A stretch of 64,000 nt of DNA from a bacterium. GTDB taxonomy: Bacteria; Bdellovibrionota_C; UBA2361; CALJRW01. Every line of letters begins with the position of its first letter. The first letter of the stretch is position 1. A model generated the notes under the pieces. The model saw nothing but the letters and a program-made list of their open reading frames with translations. It did not search any database and had not been told where the DNA came from. The position numbers were made by a program, and so were the translations under genes. The stretch is from NCBI GenBank assembly GCA_031385045.1, contig JANNBC010000006.1, forward strand, positions 32,001-96,000. The letters are read 5' to 3'. Below are positions 10,691 through 50,477 of this stretch, in pieces.

Positions 10691-12364
10691 TTAAGCACTA
10701 ACTTCACGTTCAATCTTAGTAAACAAAATCTCCGGTTGATTTAAGATTCGACCATTTGGAATTTGGTCCGAAGCCAAACTCCAAGATATCCCCTTAGAAA
10801 TTTCTTCTTGATTGTATCCATACATGAGTAACATTTTGGCAGAGGTAAACGGTAAGAATGGCTGGAGCATAATAGCAATCATTTGAATGACATTTAAATA
10901 TTCTAAAAGAATAGTTTTTGCTTTTTCTTGATTTGTTTTTAAGACTGTCCAAGGAGCATCCTCTGTAATGCAAGCATTGCCAGCGCGAATAAAGTCAAAT
11001 AATTTCTCTTGAGCCGCTTTGAAATTAAAATTATTAATTTCAGTGGATAGCTCTTTGGAAATATTAGGATTCATTCTCGATAAGAGCTTATTAAGATCTA
11101 ATTCTTGTTCGCAACTAATTTCAGTTCCAAAGTTCTTGATGTAAATACTAAAGATTCGGTTCACTAAATTTCCAAGAGTATTGGCTAACTCCGAATTATG
11201 TTTTTGGATTAAGTCATCTTCGGCAAAGATTGTCCGTGCCTTTTCTGGTGCGATTGATGTTAAGTAAAATCTTAAACTATCTGGGTTATTACCGTCAGCT
11301 AAAAAGTCTTTAATCCAAACTGCGGTTCCTCGTGATTTAGAGATTTTTTCAGCTTCTTCCCCTGGTTTCTTGAAATTTAGGAATTGATTCACAATTACTC
11401 CTTTGGGTAATTGAAAGCTACCCTCGGCCGAAAGCATCGCAATCCAAATTATGCAATGGAAGATTGTATTATCCTCACCAATAAAGTGGAAAATTTCAGT
11501 ATCAGGTGATTTCCACCAATCAACATATTTTTCACCGTCGCTATCGATTGCTTTACAAGAATTAATAGTATTACTGATATAGCCAATTGGTGCATCGAAC
11601 CAAACATACAATACCTTACCTTCCGCATCTGGATCTTCGATCGGTAGAGAAATTCCCCAATCCAAGTCTCTAGTCATCGAACGCTCAACTAGTCCTGTAG
11701 AAATTAAACCATTCACAAAGTTTTTAGTTTGCTCACGAGTAATGGCAGTCTCTAGCCAGTTGCATACCTCTGTTTGAAATTTACTAAGGTCTAAGTACCA
11801 ATGAAAGGTATCTTTGACTTGAGCAGGGAAGTTATTAAGAACGGAATAGGGATCTTTTAGTGTGTCGACATCTAGTACTTTCCCACATTCCTCACATTGA
11901 TCACTATTTTGATTTTTGGCATTACAGTAACCACAAGATCCTTTAACATAACGATCGGGTAGAAACATCTTCGCTTCTGGATCAAAGAATTGCTTGGAGG
12001 ACTTCTTCTTAAAATAGTTTTCCTTGTAAAGCTTTAGGAAGAAATCTTGGGAAGTTTTTGTATGAACGGGGTTCTCCGCAGTGGAGCCGTAGATATCAAA
12101 ATTAATACCCATACCTGAAAAATCAGCTTTTTGAGCTTTATTAAATTTATTAGCAACTGCTTCTGGCTTTATTCCTTCCTTGTCAGCAGTTAGTTTAATT
12201 GGCACTCCATGATCATCAGATCCACAAATGAAGCGAACATTTCGTCCATTAAGTCTTTGAAAGCGAACATAAATATCAGCTGGTAAGTAGCATCCAGCAA
12301 TGTGACCAACGTGAAGATTTCCATTAGAGTATGGTAAGCCACATGTAATTAGAAGGTTTTTCAT
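10691..12364 (-). CDS. metG: Methionine--tRNA ligase (lacks C-terminal tRNA-binding appendix)
   Basis: LPYSNGNLHVGH, CGYC/CEEC Zn knuckle, YVWFDAP and KISKS motifs. Confidence 0.97.
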   Translation of the reverse strand: MKNLLITCGLPYSNGNLHVGHIAGCYLPADIYVRFQRLNGRNVRFICGSDDHGVPIKLTADKEGIKPEAVANKFNKAQKADFSGMGINFDIYGSTAENPVHTKTSQDFFLKLYKENYFKKKSSKQFFDPEAKMFLPDRYVKGSCGYCNAKNQNSDQCEECGKVLDVDTLKDPYSVLNNFPAQVKDTFHWYLDLSKFQTEVCNWLETAITREQTKNFVNGLISTGLVERSMTRDLDWGISLPIEDPDAEGKVLYVWFDAPIGYISNTINSCKAIDSDGEKYVDWWKSPDTEIFHFIGEDNTIFHCIIWIAMLSAEGSFQLPKGVIVNQFLNFKKPGEEAEKISKSRGTAVWIKDFLADGNNPDSLRFYLTSIAPEKARTIFAEDDLIQKHNSELANTLGNLVNRIFSIYIKNFGTEISCEQELDLNKLLSRMNPNISKELSTEINNFNFKAAQEKLFDFIRAGNACITEDAPWTVLKTNQEKAKTILLEYLNVIQMIAIMLQPFLPFTSAKMLLMYGYNQEEISKGISWSLASDQIPNGRILNQPEILFTKIEREVSA

Positions 12365-28654: not shown

Positions 28655-28840
28655 TAGGGTTCCTGTGTTATATTTGGCTATGTTCAGGCCAAATATTTAT
28701 TTAAATATAAAAACTTACAAGTTGCCACTAAGGCAACATAACATTACTATAGTGTAGTGAACATTGTATTTTCGGTAATTTTCAATGTCACTGAGGATAT
28801 TTTTAAACGCTGGATTCTTTTCCAACTAATGTAGTTAATC

Positions 28841-31022: not shown

Positions 31023-31257
31023 CTATTAAAAACCTAATGGGTTTTAGTATTTTAAAAGTTAGGGCTAGAATAGGTATTTTAGTTATTCTGATTTAACTTG
31101 AATTATCATTACCAAATCACTTAAGCTAAACGCTAGACGTTAAAAACAACTATTGATTCTGTTACTTATTCATTCTTTTGTAGTCATAAAATAAGCATTT
31201 TATTGTTTGTCTACAGATCTATATTTAAGCAGAACTATTTAAACGGAGAATTGATTA

Positions 31258-31557: not shown

Positions 31558-31869
31558 CTATGCTGCCCGACGACGTGTGCTAATTCTTTGATTAGCATAG
31601 ATTATGGCATCCTTAGTTTTGTTTGGGTCTAGTCCCAAATGTAAGCAAATTGCACGAAAAGAGAAAATGTATTCTTCATCTTGATCTTCCATATATGTAA
31701 GTGCTTCTTGCTTAAACTCTGCCTTATTATGGAAATCATCCACGCAGCGTAAAATTATTGCCCGCATTAATTCTGTTAAAGAATCATATCCTAAGGTATC
31801 TAAGTACGCTACATCCCACTGGGGCATTTTACTAGCTGAGGTATCACCACTTTGCATAAACAACTCCAT
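31558..31869 (-). CDS. Hypothetical helical protein
   Basis: LMRAII..CVDD...EA...FSFRAICLHLGLDP pattern; plausible 103-aa ORF. Confidence 0.65.
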   Translation of the reverse strand: MELFMQSGDTSASKMPQWDVAYLDTLGYDSLTELMRAIILRCVDDFHNKAEFKQEALTYMEDQDEEYIFSFRAICLHLGLDPNKTKDAIIYANQRISTRRRAA

Positions 31870-31949
31870 AATCGCTAAAGTATACCAATGTTATGTAGTC
31901 TTTAGAAAATGTGTGCTTAAAAAAGCAATCAGTGGGATAAATTTTAGGC

Positions 31950-32061
31950 TATAGAGAGCCCAAAAAAGGATCTCCGTTAAGGAAATTATTTTTTGGACTC
32001 GGGCTTTTCAAATCCTGGCTAAGGACAGGTTTAAATGCCTAAAAACAACAAATATAGTAAA
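31950..32061. repeat. Dispersed structured intergenic element, copy 1 (core)
   Basis: About 85% identical to 41061-41173 by manual alignment; two adjacent hairpins then AAAAACAACAAATATAGTAAA. Confidence 0.9.
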
Positions 32062-32075
32062 ATAGAATTTGGGTA

Positions 32076-33059
32076 CTATTTTGTTCTGATTAGAATAAAA
32101 TCTAATAGGGAATCTAGTATCTTTTTTGTATCCGAACAGTGATTTGGAAGTAGTTTTGCCGATTCATTCAGTAAGCTCCGAGCATCGCTAATAAAGCTTT
32201 CTGCTAACTGTTGGCTAGCGGCTAAAATGCCATCCTCCTTGATTGCCTGTAAATGAATATCAATCGCTAATGTGTGAGCTTCAGGCTTAGTTTTTAGTTC
32301 TTGTGCTAGTGAATTTCCAGAATTAAGCCAAAGAACATTAACAACTGAAGGCTTACGCTCCTTTAGATCTGTTCCTAAATTTTTACCAAACTGAGCAACA
32401 TTAGCAGAAACATCTAGAATATCATCTAGAATTTGAAAAGAGATGCCTAGCTTTTCACCAAATTCGGCAAACTGACGGCAAATCTTAGGATCGCAACCTG
32501 CAATTTTAGAGGCACTAAAACAACCAAGACGAAAAAGGGCAGCCGTTTTTTTCTTAGCAATTAAAAGGCTACTTTCTAAGGTATGGGCATGGCTAAATAG
32601 GGGAGTTTCTAAGATCTCGCCTTCCGTTAAGTCCATGCAAGCAACTTCAGTAGCTTTAACAATCTCTGGATCTAGCAAGCCGCAAAGGCCAAAAGCCTTC
32701 ACCAATAAAAAGTCACCAGTAATAATTGTATCGTTTACTCCAAATTTACGGCAGGCTGTTAATTGATTTCTACGGAGCTCTGATTGATCGATAATATCAT
32801 CATGAAGAATGGTTGCGAGGTGAATCATTTCAATACCAGCGGCAACATTAATTAGCTCTGGTTTTAATTCACTTAGGCCACAAAACTTGGCGACTAATAA
32901 GGTAAGTATGGGGCGAATCTGTTTTCCCTTTTGGGCAAACGAGTAGTTAGCGATTTCTGAAATCCGAGGCGCCTCGGACTCTATTGATCGGCCGATCATT
33001 TGGTTTACATCAGCAAGTCCTGGTAACTCTTGGAGGGTTTTAAAGTCAAAAATAGTCAT
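32076..33059 (-). CDS. ispB: Polyprenyl diphosphate synthase (octaprenyl-type)
   Basis: GKQIRP, LHDDIID...RR, KKTA and FQILDDILD motifs; ATG 33059 preferred. Confidence 0.88.
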   Translation of the reverse strand: MTIFDFKTLQELPGLADVNQMIGRSIESEAPRISEIANYSFAQKGKQIRPILTLLVAKFCGLSELKPELINVAAGIEMIHLATILHDDIIDQSELRRNQLTACRKFGVNDTIITGDFLLVKAFGLCGLLDPEIVKATEVACMDLTEGEILETPLFSHAHTLESSLLIAKKKTAALFRLGCFSASKIAGCDPKICRQFAEFGEKLGISFQILDDILDVSANVAQFGKNLGTDLKERKPSVVNVLWLNSGNSLAQELKTKPEAHTLAIDIHLQAIKEDGILAASQQLAESFISDARSLLNESAKLLPNHCSDTKKILDSLLDFILIRTK

Positions 33060-33067
33060 AATACAGA

Positions 33068-34600
33068 TTACTCCCAGCCCAAGCCCTCGGATACCCAAGA
33101 GATAGCTGATAAATACTTACTTTCCATCGGGAAAATTTTGCAAAAACCATTTGTTTGAGCAAGGCTAGCATCAGTTAGACGTTTAGAATCACCAACAGTC
33201 ACGACTTTTGCTTGGGGATAAATTGAAAGGATTTCTTGAAGATCTTGTAAGCAATTGTCCGGCTTTTCATCAGCCAACATAATCAGGTCAACTCGTTTAA
33301 AGTTAATTTGATACCAAGAAAGCGCCTCTGTGGAATCCATAAATACTCGAGAATCTAGGGCAGCTGCAGAAAAGTAAAGTTTGCAAACTTCGATTTGCGA
33401 AGGATCTGGCTCTATTACCATGACTAATCCTTTACAATCAGATTTTCGATTATGTTTTAGATTTTCTTTGGATAAAGGTAGGAAGATCTTAAAAACAGTG
33501 CCTTTGCCTAGTTTGGATTCAACTGTAATAGATCCTTGATGAGCTTTAATAATTGAGAAAACAATACTTAAGCCCAGACCCATTTTATTGGCACGCTTTT
33601 TAGTTGTAAAGGTTGGATCAAATAATGAATTTAAATGTTCTGGCGCAATCCCCAACCCCTGATCACTAACAGTAATACAGGCGTACCTAGTATCATTATT
33701 TTGAAGCTTTGGAGGTAAGTCCCAACTATTTGGCACAGAAAGTGCTAATTTAATTTTACCACCACTTGGTTGCGCCTCAGTTGCATTAATAACTAAGTTT
33801 GCTAATGCCTGGCGAATCTCGGAAGGATTAAGATCCACAAAAATTGGCTCACTAGAATCCACCATAGAAACAACTCTACTCTTGGCGTCACTAGCTTCAT
33901 TCAGAAAATTTGTGGAATCGATAATCAAATCAACGAGATTACACTGCGGAATAATCTTAATTTCAGCGGGAGAGAAGGCTAGCAGGTTATTAATAAACTG
34001 CTGAGATTTATTTAGTAAGGTCTGACATTTATTGATTTTTTTGCAACACTTATCTTCTTTTAAATCTTTCTCAATATGATTTAGTAGATCGGAGATTTTC
34101 TCTAGGTTTGTTCCAAGTCCATGAGCAACATTAGCTGCTAAGGCTCCTAAAGATAAAAGTTTTTGATCCCTTAGTTGATCTTTTTCAATACTCTGTAAAC
34201 TTTTCTGAGACTTTCTTCTTTCACAAGCATAGTAGATTGAACGGTAGAGGAAGTCTGGCATAATCTTGCCAAGGATTAAGTAGTCAGCTGCTCCGGCGCG
34301 AAGTAATCTTAGATCTCGATCTTTAGATTTACCATCAGAGAGAATAACCACTGGAAGCAAAAGTGACTCTTCTTTAATTAATTCTAAAATTGCAAAAGTG
34401 TATTTGCCGAGACTTTGATCATCAAAAAGACAAACATCAAAAGTATTTTGTAATTGCTCTAAGCCAGATTGATAATTTCTAGCCCAAAAGATTTCAGATT
34501 TAAATCCTTGAACTCGGTGCAAAAGCTGAGTGATTTGAAAGTAAGTCTCCTCAGATTCGGAAATAAAAAGGATCTTTCTGGGCTTAAAGTTTTGAATCAC
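33068..34600 (-). CDS. Receiver-histidine kinase-(pseudo)receiver hybrid with degenerate H-box
   Basis: N-terminal REC (GAADYL), N/G1/F/G2 boxes (NLVINA, DQGLGI, FTTK, GLGL) and H-box AHGLGTNL. Confidence 0.85.
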   Translation of the reverse strand: MIQNFKPRKILFISESEETYFQITQLLHRVQGFKSEIFWARNYQSGLEQLQNTFDVCLFDDQSLGKYTFAILELIKEESLLLPVVILSDGKSKDRDLRLLRAGAADYLILGKIMPDFLYRSIYYACERRKSQKSLQSIEKDQLRDQKLLSLGALAANVAHGLGTNLEKISDLLNHIEKDLKEDKCCKKINKCQTLLNKSQQFINNLLAFSPAEIKIIPQCNLVDLIIDSTNFLNEASDAKSRVVSMVDSSEPIFVDLNPSEIRQALANLVINATEAQPSGGKIKLALSVPNSWDLPPKLQNNDTRYACITVSDQGLGIAPEHLNSLFDPTFTTKKRANKMGLGLSIVFSIIKAHQGSITVESKLGKGTVFKIFLPLSKENLKHNRKSDCKGLVMVIEPDPSQIEVCKLYFSAAALDSRVFMDSTEALSWYQINFKRVDLIMLADEKPDNCLQDLQEILSIYPQAKVVTVGDSKRLTDASLAQTNGFCKIFPMESKYLSAISWVSEGLGWE

Positions 34601-34905
34601 AGGATCTAAGTAAACTGGGGTGCTGTAAAATTAACTGAAAAATCAGGCAACAATTTAAGTCAATTCTAACTAGTCACTGACTTAAAGATGCTTCAGGAAG
34701 TTTTATCATGAACGGAATATTCTGTAAATTTTTACAGAAAGAGCAAACTTTGATTACTAGAGGCAATCTAAAACAACAGCAGTCAGTCTGGAAAGAACTA
34801 AGTGTACCTACCAAGAAGTTGTGAACAGAACAGCAAGAGCCTGAAGTCTTATTTGTAAACTATCATTCTATGTAAAGTAACAGAGAGTTTTTATTCTCTG
34901 ATAGT

Positions 34906-37293
34906 TTATTTAGAAAGCCTAACAATGTCATCAGCAATTTTTCCAAAAGCATCAACGATCGAAAAGTTTTCGTCTGCTGCTGAGTAAGAACCTTGTCTGA
35001 CACTATCCGCCGCATTAGTATTTGGAAATGCAGGGATTTCAACTTGTAGCTCGTTAGTTTTTCCAGTTCCATCATCAACATTAATTAAGATGCTATTTCG
35101 ACCAGCTATTCGACCAAGCAATAAATCTTTACGAGAGATGGCATCTAGATAATTTTGATAAGGTGAGCCATCTACTCCATTACATCCGGGGTAAGTAATT
35201 GTTACACCAACATTTACAGGACGACAGGGATCGGCCTCTCCAAATCCAATTGTATGCACAGTACCGTTATTGGCTCTCATTACATCAGAATAAAAGATTG
35301 GCACATTATAGAAAACCTTCATCCAACCATCTTTAATTGTTGTTTTATTTTCTGCAGCTGTACAGCTTGGGATTGTGCCAAGTGGGGGGTTAGTAGTTCT
35401 TTTATTGGCAACAATTTCTTTTGGATCGCTAATAGGAGGGATGCAATCAAGGGTTCCGTCAGAAGTTATATTTGCTTCGTAAATACTACTTCCTTGAATG
35501 AAATCATTAAAGTTAAAGGTATTACCTTTTAAATCCTTCATAGTAATATTGGTATTAATAGAGCCTGGGCTCCAAAAGTCGGGATATGTACTAATTTCTT
35601 CCGGATCAGGGTATCCAGCACCACCAAAAAACAAATTTGAAAAGGCACTAGTTTTAGCATCATTTACTTGTAGACCATAAAGCATATTAGTACTTAGTAG
35701 TAATGGATCTTCTATCAGTTTTTGCGACTTTAAGAATGTACTTGGAGACCAGACTGTCCCACCAGCACCTAGACGCGGAGTTTTTCCCGCATTGGGACCA
35801 GAGGGAACATATCTTCGATAGGAACTTAAGTTACTAAGTAGTGTTACGTCATAGTCCATTGGAACTTGCGCCAGTTTACTAGGAATATGGCGGGTATCAT
35901 TGGCAAAATTTACTCCAGGTAAGTTGGGATTTTGTAATAAAATCCTCGTAGCACTTGGGGCACCATCAGTAAATAAAACATAGTGAGTTTTTACCCGAAT
36001 TTTACCTGTAGAATCTGAGTTATATTGTAAATTATGGATGTAAGCACTAAGCAAGGCATCCGAAGGATTTGTCCAATCGCCTAATTTTAAATTTCCACTT
36101 TTAGTAACAATACTATTAAAGATAGTATCAAGTTTAGCACTATTATGTACTTCTCGTTCTCCACTAGTACTTCCGCTAACTTGCCTTCCAACATCCCATT
36201 CATTTACAAGGGCACTGTTGAAAGGAATGGCCATTGATTTATAGACAAAAGAAGCTGAGTTAAAGGGGATAATTGCAATGTTATCTTTGTTGGGACGAAA
36301 ACGCTCCATAAAGGCATCGACCCCTTGAATTAATTGATTCATCTTATTATCAAGACTGAATTTTGTAGCTACAGTGTTAATGATATAGTTTCCACTTTGG
36401 GCGTTAGCAGCAATTGCAAAATCGAAATTATTGGGACACTTAGTGGCGTCTGTAATTAAACAACCGCAATAACAGTTCTTATTTATGGCAAAGGCAACAT
36501 CCTTGTGAAGCTGGATATCAAGTGCATTTCCAGGTATTGGAAAACCAAAAATTCTAGCTTGTTGTCCATAGGACATACCGATACTATCTATACCAAGTTC
36601 AATATCATGCTTTTGTTGCATGGCAACCTCACAATCAGCTAATTGAGTGGACTGCTGATAATAACTATAACTTACTGGGCACATCATTGAATTGGAAAGA
36701 TCGACCATCAAAACAACTTGGACTGGAGAAATATCACCAATTGAAGCACTGGAAGTTTTGAATGTATCGGCATTGGTAGTACTGCCACCCAATAAGTTAG
36801 AAAGTCCCGTAGTCATTAAGAGATTGTTTCGGACTAGATCTTTAAATTCTACCTGTAGAACTTCACTACTGTTATTTGCAGGAGTAGGGCCATAAAAATT
36901 AACATAGACATCCTCTTCTGTTAATTTACCTTTAAAGCTTGGCATACTAAAAAGCGCGTTATCGCGCGCAATTTCTCGAGCTCTTTGAATTACAGATTTC
37001 TGCATTGGCCCCATTGGCTCACCATTAAAAACTTGGGCGTGGTTTTTAGTATTTTGAAAACCTGCTTGATCGTAGCTTGTGTGTAAACTGGCATCATAAC
37101 CTTTATTAACTCGGTATTCTAAGGCAGCAACAACCGCAGCATCAGTCGCTTTTTTGTACTGAAGTTTAGTATAAAACATATTGGCAGAGTCGATACTAAG
37201 GGCAGCAACACCAAGTAGGGCGACAATTCCTAGAGCCATAAGTGGTAGGTAAGCTCCAGCCTGATTATTTCTTTTAGATAATAGTTGCATCAT
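34906..37293 (-). CDS. TadG-like protein: Tad N-terminal pilin-like domain plus vWA domain
   Basis: G|AYLPLMAL...SID...ATDAAVVAA N-terminus; MIDAS DLSNS, TN and FTDG. Confidence 0.8.
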   Translation of the reverse strand: MMQLLSKRNNQAGAYLPLMALGIVALLGVAALSIDSANMFYTKLQYKKATDAAVVAALEYRVNKGYDASLHTSYDQAGFQNTKNHAQVFNGEPMGPMQKSVIQRAREIARDNALFSMPSFKGKLTEEDVYVNFYGPTPANNSSEVLQVEFKDLVRNNLLMTTGLSNLLGGSTTNADTFKTSSASIGDISPVQVVLMVDLSNSMMCPVSYSYYQQSTQLADCEVAMQQKHDIELGIDSIGMSYGQQARIFGFPIPGNALDIQLHKDVAFAINKNCYCGCLITDATKCPNNFDFAIAANAQSGNYIINTVATKFSLDNKMNQLIQGVDAFMERFRPNKDNIAIIPFNSASFVYKSMAIPFNSALVNEWDVGRQVSGSTSGEREVHNSAKLDTIFNSIVTKSGNLKLGDWTNPSDALLSAYIHNLQYNSDSTGKIRVKTHYVLFTDGAPSATRILLQNPNLPGVNFANDTRHIPSKLAQVPMDYDVTLLSNLSSYRRYVPSGPNAGKTPRLGAGGTVWSPSTFLKSQKLIEDPLLLSTNMLYGLQVNDAKTSAFSNLFFGGAGYPDPEEISTYPDFWSPGSINTNITMKDLKGNTFNFNDFIQGSSIYEANITSDGTLDCIPPISDPKEIVANKRTTNPPLGTIPSCTAAENKTTIKDGWMKVFYNVPIFYSDVMRANNGTVHTIGFGEADPCRPVNVGVTITYPGCNGVDGSPYQNYLDAISRKDLLLGRIAGRNSILINVDDGTGKTNELQVEIPAFPNTNAADSVRQGSYSAADENFSIVDAFGKIADDIVRLSK

Positions 37294-37834
37294 ATAAAAA
37301 AGATCCCTGAACGTACGGTAGTGTAAAAATCGAATTAATAAAAACTAAGATTGGGGAAAAAGGCACAAAACATTCGGCAAAAACTATTGCCTCATGTCGG
37401 TCTAGATTAGAGAATTCCGGTCTGATTTTATTAACATCAAGTAGGAGATTTAATCTACTTTGGGAGATATTTCCTTTATGGAAAGGTGTATTCCATGTTG
37501 CTCTGTCTCCGGGAGCAATTGGGTCACCAGTGGGTTTCAGATATGTTACCGCTAATTTTGTGCCCGTCACAATTGTTTGTAAATACTCTTGGAACTGAAT
37601 TAATTCAGAGTCTAAACAACTGGGTAAAAGTTGGGGATCGTCAGGACATTCCCGCTTAATTATATTAGCAAACTCTTTACTGGCACTGGAGGCAATTGTT
37701 AAGTGGTGAATTGCTCTAGTAAATTCAAAAACAGTCAGCGAAATTACAAAAATAATTGGTAAGATAAGAGCTAGCTCTACTAGCACGGAACCATTATTAG
37801 AGTTTAATTTATTGAATTGATTTATGCTTAACAT
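37274..37834 (-). CDS. TadE/TadF-like pseudopilin
   Basis: G|SVLVELALILP followed by a hydrophobic helix. Confidence 0.8.
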   Translation of the reverse strand: MLSINQFNKLNSNNGSVLVELALILPIIFVISLTVFEFTRAIHHLTIASSASKEFANIIKRECPDDPQLLPSCLDSELIQFQEYLQTIVTGTKLAVTYLKPTGDPIAPGDRATWNTPFHKGNISQSRLNLLLDVNKIRPEFSNLDRHEAIVFAECFVPFSPILVFINSIFTLPYVQGSFLYDATII

Positions 37835-38434
37835 CTACGTACCCCCCAGAAGATCAGACTGATAGCGAAAGTATTCATTTCTACCAAAGACAATAAAGTC
37901 CATTTGAGCACTGGTTTGAAACCATGAAAAAATTGAGACATTAGTTCTAATACAAATCGCTACTATTTCTCCACGTTCGCCCGCGTTTGTCGGACCAAAA
38001 GTTGTTGGCAATGCTGGATCACAACGCCATTTTGCTTGCGTTGGTGCAGTCTCTGCTGGCTGGCTGACTCCATTTACCATTCTTGCTGGCCTTACAGGCC
38101 TAGTGACTGAAATCATTGCTGGGGTAATAGTTAAATCTAGACGTTGCGCAATTTTAACTATCTCCGTTTTAATACAAGTTGCGCGAGCTGATTCACTATT
38201 CAAGCTATCAACAACAACTCCACTGTTTGGTAAATTACAACCACCTGTAGCTGTAAAATTAGATTTCGTAGCTGCTTCTAAACCTTCTTGCAGGGTATGC
38301 TGAATTGACACTGTGACGAAACTAAATTTAAGTAATTCCAACACGGAAACAATAATCATCATAAAGACAATAATCGAAATTGACATCTCCACATAAGAAG
38401 CACCAAGTTGTTGTTGGAAGGAATCCTGTTTCAT
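37835..38434 (-). CDS. TadE-like pseudopilin
   Basis: G|ASYVEMSI followed by a hydrophobic helix; ATG 38434 preferred. Confidence 0.75.
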   Translation of the reverse strand: MKQDSFQQQLGASYVEMSISIIVFMMIIVSVLELLKFSFVTVSIQHTLQEGLEAATKSNFTATGGCNLPNSGVVVDSLNSESARATCIKTEIVKIAQRLDLTITPAMISVTRPVRPARMVNGVSQPAETAPTQAKWRCDPALPTTFGPTNAGERGEIVAICIRTNVSIFSWFQTSAQMDFIVFGRNEYFRYQSDLLGGT

Positions 38435-38556
38435 GAAATATTTATACAATAGGAAGGGAATTTAACCTAACGTCCTATACTAAAACCAAAAACTCTAAAA
38501 TGAGCTAAAAAACAAAAAGCTTAGCCTAACCTTAAAAAGCTAACTTTTTAAGGCAA

Positions 38557-39054
38557 TTACATTCTTGTTTTACTATAAACCTTATCTTTTAGATGCAAAA
38601 GAAACTCTTTTGGATTTAAAAATCCTTCAATTCGTGAATCTGTAATCTCATCTCCTTGGGAGTCGATAAAAATAATAGTTGGTAGTCCTAATACATTGTA
38701 TTTATTAGAAAAATCTTCATTCTCAGAATTTACTAGGTTGAAATCTAAGCGAACAGTAATTAGGTTTTTAAGGGCTAGTTGAACTTCGCTGTTAGAAAAT
38801 GTTACCTGTTCGAATCTCTGACAGGGTTCACACCAATTAGCAGAAAGATCAACTAGGACAATCTTATTTTGCTCTGTTGCGATTCTGAGAGCTAAGTCCA
38901 GGCTGCTTTGCCATAAAATACCATCAAGATTAACCTGAGGTTTATTAAGAAAAAGGTAATCCTTAAATTTGAAGCTAAAGGAAATTAGAAATAGTATTCC
39001 TAGGATAGCAACAAGCATCATCTTATATTTTGAACCAATCTTAAGCACACTCAC
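38557..39054 (-). CDS. Membrane-anchored thioredoxin-family protein
   Basis: N-terminal TM, ANWCEPC and GLPT cis-Pro loop. Confidence 0.8.
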   Translation of the reverse strand: MSVLKIGSKYKMMLVAILGILFLISFSFKFKDYLFLNKPQVNLDGILWQSSLDLALRIATEQNKIVLVDLSANWCEPCQRFEQVTFSNSEVQLALKNLITVRLDFNLVNSENEDFSNKYNVLGLPTIIFIDSQGDEITDSRIEGFLNPKEFLLHLKDKVYSKTRM

Positions 39055-39212
39055 TTTAAAATTAAAATTATCATTAAGCTTTAAGCTATAATAAGGGATT
39101 TTAAGGATTAAGGAAAAAAATAAGATTTAATAGCCAATTTGCAAGTTTAGAGGCAAAGATTGCAGGATTAAGATTATTTTACATTTAAAGGGTCATTTGA
39201 TAACTATCTCCC

Positions 39213-39713
39213 ATGCCAAACAATCAGAAATCCGCTGTTTTTCCAGGTTCATTCGATCCATTTACAAATGGTCATATTGATATTGTAGAACGTTCACTAG
39301 AGATTTTTGAGACTGTCCATGTCGCAGTTTTAGAAAATTTTTCCAAGAATGCCCTTTTTTCACCTGAAGAAAGAGTCGCCTTAATTGAAAAAATATTTAA
39401 GAAGCAGAAGCAAAAAGTTATTGTGGAAACTTTTAGTGGACTATTGGTCGATTATGTAAAGAAGGTCAAGAGTCGGGTAATTATTCGCGGACTGCGAGCA
39501 ATCAGTGACTTTGATTATGAAGCCCAAATGGCTTTAATGAATCGGCAGTTAGATCATCGAGTAGAAACATTGTTTATGATGACCAGAGAAGAGAACTCAT
39601 ACATTAGTTCAACACTTGTAAAGCAGGTAGCACCCTATGGTGGAGATGTTTCCATGTTGGTGCACCCAATCATTGCTAAAGCATTACAAGCAAAATATTC
39701 CAAGAAGAAGTAA
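39213..39713 (+). CDS. coaD: Pantetheine-phosphate adenylyltransferase
   Basis: FPGSFDPFTNGH, RGLRAISDFDYE and ISSTLVK motifs. Confidence 0.97.
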   Translation: MPNNQKSAVFPGSFDPFTNGHIDIVERSLEIFETVHVAVLENFSKNALFSPEERVALIEKIFKKQKQKVIVETFSGLLVDYVKKVKSRVIIRGLRAISDFDYEAQMALMNRQLDHRVETLFMMTREENSYISSTLVKQVAPYGGDVSMLVHPIIAKALQAKYSKKK

Positions 39714-39743
39714 CTCCTCAAAATTTTATACATTAAATAGAAA

Positions 39744-40940
39744 ATGAAACTTATTAATAATTTAATTAAATCACAAAAACCAAGTGCCACGCTGGCAATC
39801 AAAGCAAAGACTTTAGAGCTAAAAGCTAAAGGCTTAGACATTATTGATTTTAGTACGGGAGAGCCAGATTTTGACACTCCCGATTTTATTAAAGATGCCG
39901 CAAAGCTAGCGCTTGATCAGGGACATACGAAATATACAGCGGTGCCCGGTATTCCAGCACTTCGCAAAAGACTAGCTGAGAAATTTACGATTGATAATAA
40001 AATTAAAACTGATGCTGAAGGAGTTATCGTTTGCAATGGTGGTAAACAAGCAATTCATAATTTTTTAGAAGTCGTTTTAGAACCAGGTGATGAAGTTATT
40101 ATTCCAGCTCCCTACTGGGTAAGTTATCCTGCAGAAGTTGCTTTGGCTGGTGGTGTTCCGGTGATCTGTAAAAGTAATCCAAAGAACCAGTATAAATTGA
40201 CTCCAGCAGAACTGGAGTCCTACATAACGCCTAGAACAAAAGTGTTAATTCTAAATAGCCCCTCAAATCCCACTGGTGCTGGCTATACTAAAGAGGATTT
40301 TCAAGCATTATCTAAAGTATTAACTAATCGCGAAATTATTATTATGTCAGATGAAGTTTATGAAAAAATTACCTATGGTGATTTTAAGTTTGTTTCCTTT
40401 GCGGAAGCAGTTCCAGAGCTTGCCGATCGCACTGTCACAGTTAATGCTTTTTCTAAAGCTTATTCAATGACAGGCTGGAGAGTAGGTTATGCAACAGGTC
40501 CACAAGAAATTATCTCAGCAATGTCTAAGTTTCAGAGTCAAACAACTTCTAATGTTTGTTCCTTTGCGCAGCATGCCGCCCTGGCTGCGTTAAACGGATC
40601 CCAGGATTTTATTCCCAAAATGAATCAAGTTTTTTGGACACGATTGCAGTCGGCAGTCAAAGTTATTGAAGAAACACCGGGATTAAGTTTGGCGGGAATT
40701 CCGGAAGGAGCCTTTTACTTATTTATCAGACTGGAGGAGTTCTTTGCTAAAAATTCTAAGATAAAAAATTCAACAGATTTTTGTAACTTCCTACTGGAGT
40801 CAGCCCAAGTTTCTGCAGTACCAGGAATTGAATTTGGGGATGATGGTGCTTTTAGAATAAGTATTGCCGTTTCGGATCAAGAATTAGCAACAGGAATGTC
40901 TCGCATTTCTAAAGCTTGCCAAGAGGCACTCACTAATTAG
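39744..40940 (+). CDS. aspC: PLP-dependent class I (aspartate) aminotransferase
   Basis: GEPDFDTP, NSPSNPTG, DEVY and SKAYSMTGWRVG motifs. Confidence 0.88.
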   Translation: MKLINNLIKSQKPSATLAIKAKTLELKAKGLDIIDFSTGEPDFDTPDFIKDAAKLALDQGHTKYTAVPGIPALRKRLAEKFTIDNKIKTDAEGVIVCNGGKQAIHNFLEVVLEPGDEVIIPAPYWVSYPAEVALAGGVPVICKSNPKNQYKLTPAELESYITPRTKVLILNSPSNPTGAGYTKEDFQALSKVLTNREIIIMSDEVYEKITYGDFKFVSFAEAVPELADRTVTVNAFSKAYSMTGWRVGYATGPQEIISAMSKFQSQTTSNVCSFAQHAALAALNGSQDFIPKMNQVFWTRLQSAVKVIEETPGLSLAGIPEGAFYLFIRLEEFFAKNSKIKNSTDFCNFLLESAQVSAVPGIEFGDDGAFRISIAVSDQELATGMSRISKACQEALTN

Positions 40941-40957
40941 TCAAGCCTTAGCTGATT

Positions 40958-40986
40958 TTGCTTAAATTTCAATTACTTGCTATAAG
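40958..40986 (+). promoter_or_regulatory. Putative sigma70 promoter upstream of the structured element and ndk
   Basis: TTGCTT-N17-TATAAG with an extended -10 TG. Confidence 0.45.
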
Positions 40987-40999
40987 AGCTTCCGAATAA

Positions 41000-41244
41000 G
41001 ACTTGCTTTTCGCTCCCTCCGTGGAGTTTCGAGGATAGCAAGTTGGGAAAAACTAACAGATATAGAGAATCCAAAAAAGGATTTCCTTTAAGGAAATTCA
41101 TTTTTGAGGTTCGGGCTTTTCAAATCCTGGATTTATCCAGGTTTGAATGCCTAAAAACAACAAATATAGTAAATCCAGCAGGAATTCCGAAAAAGTTTTT
41201 CGGAAATTCATTCTTGGGTTTACTATATTTTTCCCCAACTTGCT
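41000..41244. repeat. Dispersed structured intergenic element, copy 2 (core 41061-41173); candidate ncRNA
   Basis: Core matches 31950-32061; four hairpins plus a long-range inverted repeat AGCAAGTTGGGAAAAA / TTTTTCCCCAACTTGCT. Confidence 0.85.
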
Positions 41245-44854: not shown

Positions 44855-45604
44855 ATGAAAAATTCAATTCTAAAAGTTGAAAATTTATCGAAGTTTTTTG
44901 GAACGAATCACGTTTTAAAGAATCTGAGCTTTGAAGTTGAAGAAGGACAAGTTATTGGACTACTTGGACCCAGTGGTGGTGGTAAGAGCGTGTTACTTAA
45001 AATCATTGCTCAAGTTCTTGCACCCGACCATGGTCAAATAATTCTTAATGATATTTCTAGTGATGATATTGGCTTAATGTTTCAAGAAGGAGCACTTTTT
45101 GATTCATTAACAGTTTTTGATAATGTTGCATTCCCCTTGGTTGATGGTTGTGTTCCTTCAACTTCTTTGACCCTAAAAGTCCAAGAAGAGATTGCGCCAA
45201 AAGTAATGAGCATTTTAAAAAGAGTTGGTCTAGGAGTTGCCTTTAAGAAATTCCCAGCTCAATTATCAGGTGGAATGAAGCGTCGTGCTTCATTAGCACG
45301 AACTTTAATTGCCAATCCCAAGTTATTATTGCTAGATGATCCAACCTCGGGACTTGATCCAATCGCGAGTCGAGTCATTATGGAATTAATTAGAGAAATA
45401 CAGCAGGAGACTAAGGCAACTACAATTATTGTGAGCCAAGATTTACGTCGCTTAATACCTTATGTCGATCAAGTTATTGCGCTCTTTGATGGTCAACTAG
45501 CTTATTATGGAAAGGTTAGTAAAGATTCCTTAGCCCAAGAGCCAATTGTGGCTGATTTTATTAATTGTCGTTATGACTTGTTTGAACAACCAGTGAACCA
45601 TTGA
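44855..45604 (+). CDS. MlaF/Mkl-like ABC ATP-binding protein with degenerate catalytic residues
   Basis: GPSGGGKS, FQEGALFDSL and LSGGMKRR; Walker B reads LLLDDP and the H-loop VSQD. Confidence 0.85.
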   Translation: MKNSILKVENLSKFFGTNHVLKNLSFEVEEGQVIGLLGPSGGGKSVLLKIIAQVLAPDHGQIILNDISSDDIGLMFQEGALFDSLTVFDNVAFPLVDGCVPSTSLTLKVQEEIAPKVMSILKRVGLGVAFKKFPAQLSGGMKRRASLARTLIANPKLLLLDDPTSGLDPIASRVIMELIREIQQETKATTIIVSQDLRRLIPYVDQVIALFDGQLAYYGKVSKDSLAQEPIVADFINCRYDLFEQPVNH

Positions 45605-45609
45605 TTAAA

Positions 45610-45749
45610 CCCACCTTCATTCATTTTTGACAAAAAATGAATGAAGGTGGGCGAGCAAAATAATGGCTTTGCCATTTTTTGCCGTAGAAAATAACACCAA
45701 ACCCTCTTTATGATGTTTATTATTTTCAAAAATGATGAGCGGAGGGTTT
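45610..45749 (+). other. Three-hairpin intergenic cassette
   Basis: Perfect 19-bp inverted repeat 45610-45651, hairpin 45652-45684 and G-U-rich hairpin 45699-45749. Confidence 0.7.
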
Positions 45750-45783
45750 ATTTGCTAGTCCAAAAATAGGAAGGAAAATATAG

Positions 45784-46569
45784 ATGAATTTTTTTGAAAA
45801 GATAAAGAAGGATAAGGAGGAATTCCTTGCTGGAATTGGTCTACCTGAACAAGGTGTTTTTAAGCCTGATAAATTTCAGTTAGATGCTATTGAAAGTGCT
45901 GTCTCTGGTGTTGATACTTTGGTTGTAGCACCAACAGGTTCTGGAAAAACTTACATAGCACTGCAGGCAATCGCGGCAACCTTAGCACTTGGCTGTCGAG
46001 CAATTTACACTACTCCGCTAAAAGCCTTATCTAATAGTAAGTACAATGATTTAAAAAATCGCTTTGAGCCTCAATATAAAGTTGGTATTTTAACTGGCGA
46101 TCGAAAAATTGATACTGATGCCAGTGCCGTAATTGCCACGACTGAAATTTATCGTAATGAGCTTTATAATGGGAATACAAATTATTCTTTAGTTGTACTT
46201 GATGAAGTACATTATATTGCCGATGCTCAAAGGGGTGCAGTTTGGGAGGAAGCAATTTTACTTACACCTCGAGATACTACTTTATTAATGCTTTCTGCTT
46301 CAATTTCTAATCATCAGGAAATTGCCGCTTGGTTAAAAAGTGTTCGTGGTAGAGAATGCCGTGTTGTTATTGCAACGGAAAGACCCGTAGCACTGCGCTT
46401 AGGTTTTCTTCATCCTGAATATGGAATTTTACCACTTCGTGATTCTCATCAAAATGTTAATAAGTTAGTGGCAGACTATTATGGCAGTTCAAAGTTAGAT
46501 TCCAAAGGGATGAGACTTAAACCAAAGCAAGGATTTCGTGGCCCTCGTCGTCAAAAATCACGTCGATAA
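45784..46569 (+). CDS. HelY/Ski2-like DExH helicase, N-terminal RecA1 half
   Basis: APTGSGKT, TPLKALSN, DEVH and LSAS motifs. Confidence 0.85.
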   Translation: MNFFEKIKKDKEEFLAGIGLPEQGVFKPDKFQLDAIESAVSGVDTLVVAPTGSGKTYIALQAIAATLALGCRAIYTTPLKALSNSKYNDLKNRFEPQYKVGILTGDRKIDTDASAVIATTEIYRNELYNGNTNYSLVVLDEVHYIADAQRGAVWEEAILLTPRDTTLLMLSASISNHQEIAAWLKSVRGRECRVVIATERPVALRLGFLHPEYGILPLRDSHQNVNKLVADYYGSSKLDSKGMRLKPKQGFRGPRRQKSRR

Positions 46570-46587
46570 TTTAAACCAATATTCTCT

Positions 46588-47997
46588 ATGTATACAGATT
46601 ACCCAGTAAGTAAAATACTTCGACAGTTAGATCGTGATAATTTACTACCAGCTATTATTTTTCGTTCAGCTCGCAAGCAGTGTGATCAAGACTTAACTCA
46701 ACTAACAAAAAAGAGTTATTTACAAATTAAACCTGAGCATCAAAAAGATATTGAAAATCGTATTGCTGAATTAGTACTGCAATATTCTTGGGATTTTGAG
46801 ATCCTTAAAAATCACGAGCAATACAAAACTCTAATTCATTTTGCTGCTGGTGCTCACCATGCCGGCCAATTATTAACTTGGAGACTTATGCTGGAAGAGC
46901 TAATGACTTCTGGTTTATTAAGAATGCTAATTGCTACTGGGACTGTCGCTGCCGGAGTAGATTTTCCAGCTCGTACTGTTGTAGTTACTGCTCATAGTAA
47001 GCGTGGTCATTTAGGATTTAACACCCTTGCTTCTTCTGAGTTTCAGCAAATGTCTGGTCGTGCTGGTCGCCGAGGCAAAGATTCCGTGGGTTTTTGCCTT
47101 GTCGCTCCCAATCCCTATGCCGATGCCCGAGTAATTTCAGAAATTGATAAATCTCCTCCCGAACCCTTGCGATCGGCCTACTTTGCTTCGCCATCAAGCA
47201 TTTTGAATCTACTTAAATATCGTTCAATTGAGGACTTAAAATTTATTGTAAAAAATTCTCTGGGCGGTTTCGTTGATCAAACAGAAGCATTAAAGATAAT
47301 TGAAGAAGCAGATAAGGAAGAGTTAAAACTTGCCGGAATTCCGGAGAATGATGCTAATTTTAAGCGAATCGTCAAGAAGGTCCGTCGCCTAAAAAGAAAT
47401 GCCGAAGAGCTTGTTAATAAGCAAATGACCGAGCTAGAAATAACCTTGCAAGCTCTTAAAAACTTAGGTCATGTTAATGCTACTGGCGGCTTAACGGAAA
47501 AGGGGACTTGGACTGCCGAGCTATGTACTAGTATTGTTTTAGAACTTTCTGAGTTTATTGAAGACTTTTTGTTAAATGACTGTTCCACCTTAGAGTTAGT
47601 TGGGATTGTTGCTTCGATCTCTGGAGATGCACATCGGTCATATTTGAGAATCAAGAACACCGTTGTCAAAAAAGATAAGCTAGAAGCATTAGCTAGTAAG
47701 GTTCAGCTGGTCAAGGACATGTACCAAGTGAAAAATTTTGAAAGAGGAATTGAAGTTTTACCAGATGCGGCATCAACGGTTGAAACTTGGGTTCAAGCAA
47801 GTAGCTGGGGTGAATTTTCTGCTCTGTTAAAACTTTCAGGAGTAACGGAAGGTGACGCTGCTAGACTAATCACCCAAACAGCGGATCACCTGCAACAGAT
47901 TTCCAGACTTGGCACAACGCACTTTGAGCTTGCCCAGCAAGCAAAAGAAGCCCGAGACTTACTTCTAAGACCCCCCTTGTCCGAAGTAATTATCTAA
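46588..47997 (+). CDS. HelY/Ski2-like helicase, C-terminal half (RecA2 plus C-terminal domains)
   Basis: LLPAI, HHAG, ATGTVAAGVDFPARTV and QMSGRAGRRG motifs. Confidence 0.85.
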   Translation: MYTDYPVSKILRQLDRDNLLPAIIFRSARKQCDQDLTQLTKKSYLQIKPEHQKDIENRIAELVLQYSWDFEILKNHEQYKTLIHFAAGAHHAGQLLTWRLMLEELMTSGLLRMLIATGTVAAGVDFPARTVVVTAHSKRGHLGFNTLASSEFQQMSGRAGRRGKDSVGFCLVAPNPYADARVISEIDKSPPEPLRSAYFASPSSILNLLKYRSIEDLKFIVKNSLGGFVDQTEALKIIEEADKEELKLAGIPENDANFKRIVKKVRRLKRNAEELVNKQMTELEITLQALKNLGHVNATGGLTEKGTWTAELCTSIVLELSEFIEDFLLNDCSTLELVGIVASISGDAHRSYLRIKNTVVKKDKLEALASKVQLVKDMYQVKNFERGIEVLPDAASTVETWVQASSWGEFSALLKLSGVTEGDAARLITQTADHLQQISRLGTTHFELAQQAKEARDLLLRPPLSEVII

Positions 47998-50402: not shown

Positions 50403-50477
50403 TGGCCTGTCGCCAAGTGGTAAGGCAACTGGTTTTGGTCCAGTCATCCGGGGGTTCGAATCCTCCCAGGCCAGCCA
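50403..50477 (+). tRNA. tRNA-Gln(TTG)
   Basis: Cloverleaf with TGGCCTG/CAGGCCA acceptor, ACTGG-ttTTGgt-CCAGT anticodon arm, GTTCGAAT T-loop and encoded CCA. Confidence 0.97.

Follow-up and report, generated by a model that had tools for sequence, protein, structure and literature searches.

MITEs are short elements (50–800 bp) that carry no transposase (PMC11602168), and among those catalogued MITEEc1_IS630 is described as the commonest ISfinder match (PMC11602168). RUP was assigned to IS630-Spn1 on two grounds, both of which also hold for the repeats described below, and according to the same source this link between a MITE and IS630 rests on indirect evidence (PMC2229807). For other bacterial repeats, TIR partners had for the most part not been sought or not been identified by the time of that 2007 review (PMC2229807). 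ISY100, a member of the IS630 family, is reported to insert at TA and to duplicate it (PMC2170065).

The window analysed here is the whole stretch of 64,000 nucleotides from contig JANNBC010000006.1 of the source genome (G000), which was compared with a genome of the same genus (G001, the congener) and with a relative in the same family (G002). A preliminary description had noticed two copies of a multi-hairpin non-coding element in the window and had proposed either a trans-acting sRNA or a non-autonomous palindromic DNA element. The second alternative is supported and can be given a name. We consider it very likely that the repeats are an IS630-type MITE, of the known kind of RUP, Correia and ERIC, mobilised by a borrowed transposase, as indicated by their TIRs, by IS630 genes with similar TIRs in relatives, and by an empty allele of a sister element. 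The claim of an undescribed family was right in one part: the sequence family is undescribed within the searches made. The plasmid and phage collections gave no match to copy 2, and a literature search found no publication describing these repeats. The kind of element is well known.

Anatomy and Gene Context of the Two Copies

The copies at 31950–32061 and 41061–41173 align in the same orientation over 113 nt with 85.8% identity and 16 differences (BLASTN, E=7e-31), which bears out the extent and divergence given before. Hairpins A and B and the AAAAACAACAAA-TATAGTAAA segment are present in both copies as claimed, and the compensatory change at the base of hairpin A was confirmed as a double change from G-C to A-U. 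The gene context, taken from a simple gene caller, likewise agrees with that description: on the plus strand, copy 2 precedes ndk and copy 1 precedes no CDS, and on the minus strand the reverse holds. No ORF of at least 80 aa lies inside either copy.

Other parts of the preliminary description had to be revised. The family is far larger than two copies, with many more in the genome. In copy 2 the element reaches 41227, so that hairpin C, which had been regarded as a variable flank, forms its right end; in copy 1 this end is damaged, which leaves hairpin C short. The 5' TGCT...AGCA stems, which had been described as flanking stems of constant position, lie outside its boundaries and are not common to the other copies. 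The features are listed in Table 1.

Table 1. Features of the two family-I copies, with positions in the window.
Feature	Position	Strand	Evidence
Copy 2, complete family-I MITE, 167 bp with TA at each end (163 bp without)	41061..41227	+	Inward-facing TIR pair; sharp boundaries among six complete copies; absent from the orthologous G001 spacer
Left TIR of copy 2 (TATAGAGAATCC...), whose first TA is presumably the target duplication	41061..41087	+	Profile score 29.4; 18–22 of 27 positions identical to nine IS630 ends
Hairpin A, formed by the left TIR and an inverted inner copy without the terminal CTATA	41067..41112	+	
Hairpin B, central stem with variable tip	41113..41152	+	
A-rich linker AAAAACAACAAA	41153..41164	+	Similar A-rich linkers before the inner TATAG/TATAC of other subfamilies
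Hairpin C, inner TIR-like copy starting with TATAG, paired with the right TIR (a TIR-only mini-element)	41165..41227	+	
Right TIR of copy 2 (minus strand: TATAGTAAACCC...)	41201..41227	-	Profile score 35.4; 18–23 of 27 positions identical to nine IS630 ends
Copy 1, family-I MITE; left TIR, A, B and linker intact, right end damaged and most of hairpin C missing	31950..32079 (right limit approximate)	+	
Left TIR of copy 1	31950..31976	+	Profile score 29.8; 17–21 of 27 positions identical to nine IS630 ends

The length of copy 2 lies within the range of a MITE, and the TIRs at both of its ends, at about 27 bp, exceed the minimum of 10–15 bp asked of such an element; copy 1 keeps only the left TIR intact. 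The right-end remnant of copy 1 overlaps the stop codon of the polyprenyl synthase gene (32076–32078, minus strand), and in the congener the stop codon of this gene falls at the matching position. Both copies in the window are older, diverged insertions. Elsewhere in the source genome, the tip of hairpin B carries a 32-nt palindromic insert in two cases (C24:64030 and C24:111134), and TIR pairs of 55–65 bp also stand alone, for example at C45:24617-24681.

A Family of Elements Sharing One TIR

Family I, to which both copies belong, comprises six complete and at least five partial copies on six contigs of the source genome, in both orientations, and related copies also occur in the congener. 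Its TIRs, one at each end, are imperfect, about 27 bp long and start with TATAG. Among the six complete copies, the 27 bases inside the left and right ends are 93% and 98% majority-identical, as compared with 47% and 53% for the 40 bases beyond each end; TA stands at both ends in four of the six and at one end in two. This number and distribution of copies, together with the relatives in the congener, all but rule out that promoter DNA was duplicated by chance or in a single event, even though both window copies are intergenic.

This TIR is not confined to family I: in the source genome, some 40 elements from several subfamilies end in it. A TIR profile found 99 sites of at least 19 bits, versus none in either of two Markov-resampled genomes, and most of these sites form inward pairs 55–270 bp apart around different interiors. 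Of 64 paired elements, 57 had TA at both ends and the other seven at one, a count to be read with the profile's own preference for TA. Matches to the exact TIR pattern numbered 20, 94 and 16 in the three genomes of the family, nine in one other genome and 0–2 in the remaining 87; the two in G021 are the ends of its own IS630. A second family ends in TATAC, and the arrangement of a TIR with an inverted inner copy, a central stem and an A-rich linker is kept there and across subfamilies of unrelated interior.

IS630 Transposases in Relatives

The relative G002 encodes a 319-aa IS630 transposase (L075; NF033545 206 bits, cut-off 100; PF13358) between two identical 27-bp TIRs, forming an element of 1,174 bp. 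An IS630 of the congener (L074) is 70% identical to L075, and its right TIR agrees at 30 of 31 positions with the end of a subfamily in the source genome. The partner transposase has N-terminal HTH domains and DDE motifs at 158–161 (FGDE/FSDE), 238–241 (LDNA) and 268–273 (PIENLW). Among the 12 best-matching plasmid-borne relatives listed, identity to it is only 26–32%, and it thus forms a clade of its own.

Twelve related transposase loci were retrieved and 11 entered the comparison of ends; L081 (28% identity, partial) was omitted and gave no match to the TIR profile. The TIR described here was found at both ends in five loci, at the right end in three and, with the TIR body only, at the left end in one, and it was not seen at the two most distant of the 11 (38% identity). 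The ends of L082 show the same left/right asymmetry as family I. The window TIRs of family I agree at 17–23 of 27 positions with nine IS630 ends, which were taken from G001, G002 and metagenome contigs, and other subfamilies match better, up to 30 of 31. As these TIRs resemble IS630 ends in relatives, the element is most likely an ordinary miniature transposon and not a new RNA gene.

The source genome itself contained no IS630 gene or remnant (no tblastn match at E≤1; best PF13358 match below cut-off). Its assembly is 95% complete and is broken at these repeats, with a TIR within 300 bp of 23 of its 122 contig ends; thus, the IS630 gene may be unassembled or may have been lost.

Insertion Sites and Empty Alleles

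The preliminary description had proposed a comparison of orthologous empty sites. The site of copy 2 is empty in the congener, where the aspC–ndk spacer measures 239 bp versus 396 bp in the source genome. Over about 1.15 Mb of the 3.3 Mb of G001, orthologous spacers lacked a TIR match for 11 of 14 elements of the source genome and for 24 of 28 elements of the congener, and some of those listed as lacking a TIR hold degenerate repeats. The other three of the 14 spacers in G001 also had TIR matches, once with a family-I-like element (C54:320060). The flanks in G001 are too diverged for a family-I target duplication to be read.

A duplication of TA, as in IS630, was seen for a sister subfamily. 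Contigs of four runs were compared over a stretch of about 17 kb (G000 C54:304500-321800), which lies apart from the window copies. One contig from run X3, which belongs to another study, skips exactly TA plus 143 bp of the sister-subfamily element at C54:315332-315478 and keeps a single TA, with two letters that fit either side of the joint; this allele rests on one contig with a depth of 4.2 and 48 letters on the short side. For the two family-I copies in the same stretch, the four runs gave no contig joint removing either of them.

Proposed Mechanism

We infer mobilisation by an IS630 enzyme from the comparison of ends. By analogy with the biochemistry of IS630/Tc1-mariner elements, the HTH domains of the transposase would attach to the outer pair of TIRs and its DDE domain would excise the element, which would insert at TA and duplicate it. 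Judging from the anatomy, each end of the element would be a TIR with its inverted inner copy, and this would be why the hairpins exist. Such ends probably arose from TIR-only mini-elements landing side by side, which would then move as one unit between the outermost TIRs. Any effects on ndk or on other neighbouring genes would be incidental.

Alternative Explanations

As an addition to the MITE origin, both copies might have been co-opted as cis-regulators, serving as attenuator, processing site or promoter for ndk–rlmN and for a gene encoding a 103-aa protein. The ndk ATG follows copy 2 at a distance of about 100 bp, and copy 2 has two terminator-like stems on the ndk strand (0.4 expected). 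In Neisseria, enterobacteria and pneumococcus, transcripts of MITEs are reported to act on nearby mRNAs (PMC3049150, PMC2229807). However, the congener has no element before ndk, copy 1 is decaying, and in tandem spacers the elements show no strand bias (eight on the gene strand versus nine on the opposite strand), which also bears out the earlier remark that a single cis-leader role does not account for the two copies. Co-option is regarded as unlikely.

Slightly less probable still, and clearly doubtful, is an IS630 clade whose ends must fold, in which a structure of single-stranded RNA or DNA would contribute to transposition or to its regulation. A role of folding in transposition was not found described for IS630/Tc1-mariner in a limited literature search.

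Observations that would fit this reading are the TIR with inner copy, stem and linker kept across subfamilies, the better folding of the linker strand, and the end of L087, an autonomous relative that shares both its hairpin end and the CCCTCCGGGGG motif with a subfamily of the source genome.

A multi-copy, independently transcribed structured sRNA, with its fold kept by selection, is very improbable. All strands of the window copies fold better than shuffles (z-scores of -2.2, -5.4, -5.1 and -3.5 for two copies on both strands), and the full copy 2 folds at -65.4 kcal/mol on the plus strand versus -51.0 kcal/mol on the minus strand. Of 47 oriented, non-independent elements of at least 120 bp, 35 fold better on the linker strand (nine of 56 were left out as unorientable). 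Mild signs of structure beyond the TIRs are thus seen in the internal stems, a point that counts against the MITE reading. Paired cells (95.7%) and the covariation score exceed all 500 shuffles, as related sequences often do, but pairs changed on both sides amount to only four of 64, none of them in hairpin C, a level reached by 106 of 500 shuffles, and the RNAalifold covariation term is +0.47. On the plus strand, G-U cells outnumber A-C cells by 45 to 8, although many of the G-U cells stem from a few fixed positions. Promoter-like matches are at shuffle level. A search of Rfam, also proposed earlier, gave only a tRNA at 50403 at the gathering score over the window and thus no family at either copy; at E≤1, all seven matches around copy 2 were far below cut-off. 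Moreover, the position of the supposed sRNA is not kept between congeners, its site before ndk being empty in G001, and the element boundaries coincide with transposon-type TIRs. The trans-acting sRNA of the preliminary description is therefore not supported.

Equally improbable is a repeat of the REP/BIME/REPIN type, spread through single-stranded hairpins by a RAYT-like HUH tyrosine transposase. The modular hairpin architecture would suit it, and the source genome has two Y1_Tnp genes resembling RAYT (NF047646 68 and 36 bits, with a cut-off of 80), with six further Y1_Tnp matches in G001 and three in G002. Yet none of these 11 loci carries the element or its TIR within the roughly 1.5 kb fetched on each side, unlike the three PF13358 matches over cut-off, all of which have TIRs beside them, and a 2-bp TA duplication fits a DDE enzyme. 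RAYT/IS200 was thus rejected as the mobiliser. An IS200/IS605 pair in G002 has ends unrelated to these TIRs.

Implications

With the IS630-type MITE as the preferred reading, a candidate new RNA is removed and filed as a known kind of selfish DNA. The repeats break the assembly, and searches for structured RNAs in this family of uncultured Bdellovibrionota will go on turning them up as false candidates. Mobilisation in trans can be put to a direct test here, since intact transposases whose TIRs match occur along with several MITE subfamilies and one empty allele.

Comparison with Known Systems

The partner transposase belongs with the IS630 family (ISY100, IS630), passing NCBIfam NF033545 and PF13358, whereas the MITE encodes nothing. 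RUP resembles the present element as a short, intergenic, tightly folded multi-copy repeat with TA termini and IS630-like TIRs (PMC2229807, PMC3049150). It is a single 107-bp unit whose TIR is given as 9 bp in a review table and whose termini pair with each other, whereas the element described here has 167 bp and TIRs of about 27 bp, its ends fold separately, each with an inner copy of its TIR, and one TIR is common to many interiors; the two sequences were likened by description.

Similarly, Correia/NEMIS of Neisseria and ERIC/IRU of enterobacteria are described with TIRs, a target duplication, TA termini, a length of 100–200 bp and stable stem-loops (PMC2229807). They come from a different host phylum, and in the present case relatives carry an intact transposase whose TIRs match closely. 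CIR of Caulobacter/Brucella also has two hairpin arms joined by a linker, but is listed with neither TIRs nor a known mobiliser (PMC2229807). BOX of pneumococcus shares the modular interiors but has been linked to ISSpn2 and not to IS630 (PMC3049150). The kinship meant here is that of the same kind of element as RUP, Correia and ERIC, and not membership of those families.

Repeat family and its boundaries

The assembly (2.83 Mb, 36.8% GC, 61 contigs) contains six complete copies of the family-I repeat, five of 167 bp and one of 198 bp with an insert, as well as the partial copies listed in the table. The preliminary description had aligned two segments of the window, and this alignment was reproduced (85.8% identity over 113 nt, E=7e-31), with the hairpins, the linker, and the compensatory change present in both. 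Similarity among the six complete copies ends abruptly at TATAG...CTATA, with majority identities of 93% and 98% in the 27 bases inside the ends versus 47% and 53% in the 40 bases outside, so that copy 2 spans 41061-41227. The 5' TGCT/AGCA stems, previously described as flanking stems that keep their position, fall outside these boundaries, and the proposed length variation of hairpin C reflects a damaged right end in copy 1. The remnant, which is a degenerate terminal inverted repeat (TIR) or else a deletion junction, reaches over the stop codon of the polyprenyl synthase gene; a same-genus genome (G001) has this codon at the same place.

Further copies were found genome-wide and among 40 relatives: 44 matches in G001 and 9 weak ones in a same-family genome (G002), while one of the remaining 38 genomes gave a single 19-nt match (E=0.0066). 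No Rfam family matched at copies 1 and 2.

The 103-aa gene beside copy 1 is conserved in G001 (82-83% nucleotide identity) with a MITE (miniature inverted-repeat transposable element) upstream in both genomes. A separate 16-bp inverted repeat encloses copy 2 in its loop; the empty site of G001 lacks this inverted repeat, which may be a small element of greater age.

Features of the window and of related loci (Cnn, contigs of the genome under study; L0xx, fetched loci)
Feature	Position	Strand	Remarks
Copy 1 (partial)	window 31950-~32079		neighbours: 103-aa gene and 3' end of polyprenyl synthase gene, both minus strand
Copy 2	window 41061-41227		neighbours: aminotransferase gene and ndk, both plus strand
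Other partial family-I copies	C48:11643; C24:111134; C27:36465		
Partial copies cut by contig ends	C60:1-162; C43:1-77		
103-aa gene	window 31558-31869	minus	no Pfam match
16-bp inverted repeat	window 41037-41052 and 41228-41244		
TATAC group, examples	C51:7054-7270; C31:27025-27239		
TATAC group, fragments	window 28764-28808; 31028-31061		
~160-bp repeat	window 45592-45755		between ABC ATPase gene and helicase-like gene
Helicase-like protein	window 45784-47997		seen as consecutive ORFs of 261 and 469 aa; identified only by motifs in their translations
GCTTTAGC-loop palindrome	C24:64111; C24:111170; C2:33967; others		27 pattern matches
CCCTCCGGGGG subfamily	C54:315332-315478; L077:668-822		this genome and G002
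IS630 relative, end	L087:850-1000		
RAYT-like Y1 genes	L031:357-1322 (C28); L032:898-1824 (C26)		321 aa; 308 aa

Terminal inverted repeats and modular interiors

Read inward, both family-I ends fit one 27-bp profile starting TATAG, which at a score of at least 19 bits matched 99 sites in the genome versus none in two Markov-resampled genomes. Most matches pair up facing inward at a spacing of 55-270 bp and enclose several different interiors. Together with a second, TATAC-ended profile, 64 paired elements were obtained (10 clusters and 6 singletons), and unpaired matches of this two-profile search gave 62 further clusters. In hairpin A the left TIR pairs with an inverted inner copy that has no terminal CTATA, and in hairpin C the right TIR pairs with an inner copy starting TATAG. 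TIR pairs of 55-65 bp also stand alone, and in G001 copies a further hairpin separates A from B. The ends are thus kept and the interiors vary, which indicates that interiors are exchangeable.

A second large group of about 20 paired copies (~215 bp) has TATAC-starting TIRs and the family-I layout of hairpin, core stem, A-rich linker, and hairpin; no transposase bounded by TATAC-starting ends was seen. A further subfamily of ~160 bp, with several more copies in the genome, has ends like TAAACCC...GGGTTTA and a central GCGAGC...GCCGT with an A-rich linker. The ~30-nt palindrome with a GCTTTAGC-type loop occurs alone or at hairpin tips within several MITE subfamilies; two family-I copies have it at the tip of hairpin B.

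Empty sites and the probable target duplication

The suggested comparison of orthologous sites revealed an empty site for copy 2, as the aspC-ndk spacer of G001 is without the element. For elements of this genome 11 of 14, and for those of G001 24 of 28, orthologous spacers gave no TIR match in the other genome. Some of the spacers without a match contain degenerate repeats, and at one family-I site both genomes have a family-I-like element. At the copy-1 gene (window 31950) and at C24:64030, the MITE of G001 (L072 and L104) belongs to a different subfamily and lies at most about 20 bases from the corresponding point; hot spots for insertion, or replacement by homology between TIRs, are suggested.

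Contigs of four sequencing runs were compared with a 17-kb stretch of the genome. In run X3, from a study other than that of the probable source run, one joint skips 10833-10977, with TA at start and end and two letters fitting either side. It removes the sister element at C54:315332-315478 and leaves one TA. The joint falls on the predicted bases, but a single contig of depth 4.2 carries it, and an artefact of assembly could have produced it.

Probable partner transposase

The first lead, RAYT-like Y1_Tnp genes, was rejected, as none of 11 Y1_Tnp loci had the element within the ~1.5 kb covered on either side. Downstream of the L031 gene lies a tandem short repeat containing GTGCCAGGC, unrelated to the MITE. 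At locus L053 (G002, C5), a TnpA of 164 aa and a divergent TnpB-like ORF of 446 aa belong to an IS200/IS605-type element; TTCGAA-rich repeats and a ParA-like gene come after it.

A PF13358 search gave three matches over cut-off across G001 and G002, all three with TIRs beside them, and none in the genome under study, which also gave no tblastn match to the transposase at E<=1. The G002 IS630 transposase (319 aa, NF033545 206 bits) is flanked by a pair of identical 27-bp TIRs, and the whole measures 1,174 bp from end to end. The G001 enzyme is 70% identical to it; its end TIR matches a subfamily end of the genome under study at 30/31 positions and shares its TATA with an adjoining MITE end.

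Twelve related transposase loci were fetched and 11 examined for ends. Five carry the TIR at both ends (L078, L080, L082, L083, and L084; 1.17-1.23 kb), three at the right end (L079, L085, and L087), and at the left end of L088 the TIR body is present but TATAG is not. Neither of the two loci at 38% identity showed the TIR (L089 is partial, and L086 has a different one). The three outer TIRs of the window match nine IS630 ends at 17-23 of 27 positions. Among 91 genomes of the order, the exact TIR pattern had 20, 94, and 16 matches in three genomes of the family, 9 in G045, and 0-2 in the others. Transposases of at least 59% identity occur in G001, G002, and G021; G045 gave no match at E<=1e-30.

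In the autonomous relative at L087 the terminal TIR hairpin follows CCCTCCGGGGG, as it does in one MITE subfamily of this genome and G002.

RNA and cis-regulatory readings

Family-I folds are stable, and stable folds are described for bacterial MITEs generally (PMC2229807). Changes on both sides affected 4 of 64 named pairs in 15 copies, and 106 of 500 shuffles reached as many. Paired cells and the covariation score exceeded all shuffles, as is often the case for related sequences. G-U outnumbered A-C (45 vs 8), and in 35 of 47 elements it is the linker strand that folds better. Given the G-U excess, linker-strand folding, and covariation measures, a structure-dependent reading keeps a small probability; its boldest form, in which the ends of an IS630 clade have to fold, is improbable. 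A cis role is opposed by tandem-spacer orientation (8 vs 9) and by the positions of the 64 elements (24 tandem, 23 divergent, 11 convergent, and 6 at edges).

Mechanism and comparison with known elements

Family I is very probably an IS630-type MITE, which an IS630 enzyme would mobilise in trans and which may have been built up as a composite. The observations behind this reading are the TIRs, the dispersed copies, the differences in occupancy between congeners, IS630 elements of relatives that look cognate, and one empty allele of a sister subfamily with TA only. Established IS630 biochemistry, with TIRs bound by the HTH, cut-and-paste movement, and TA duplication in ISY100 (PMC2170065), points to an enzyme that would act on the outer TIRs in trans. 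TIR-only mini-elements may have inserted at the TA-rich ends of earlier ones, a case observed directly in the G001 IS630 that adjoins a MITE end.

Family I shows the testable features of a MITE, apart from a transposase within its own assembly and a target duplication read directly at its sites. A limited literature search, with PMC2229807, PMC2170065, PMC11602168, and PMC3049150 among its sources, showed no description of this repeat family. On this search the sequence family is new, and the kind of element, very probably an IS630-type MITE, is already known. Without claiming membership of those named families, the family-I element can be said to work like RUP, Correia, and ERIC.
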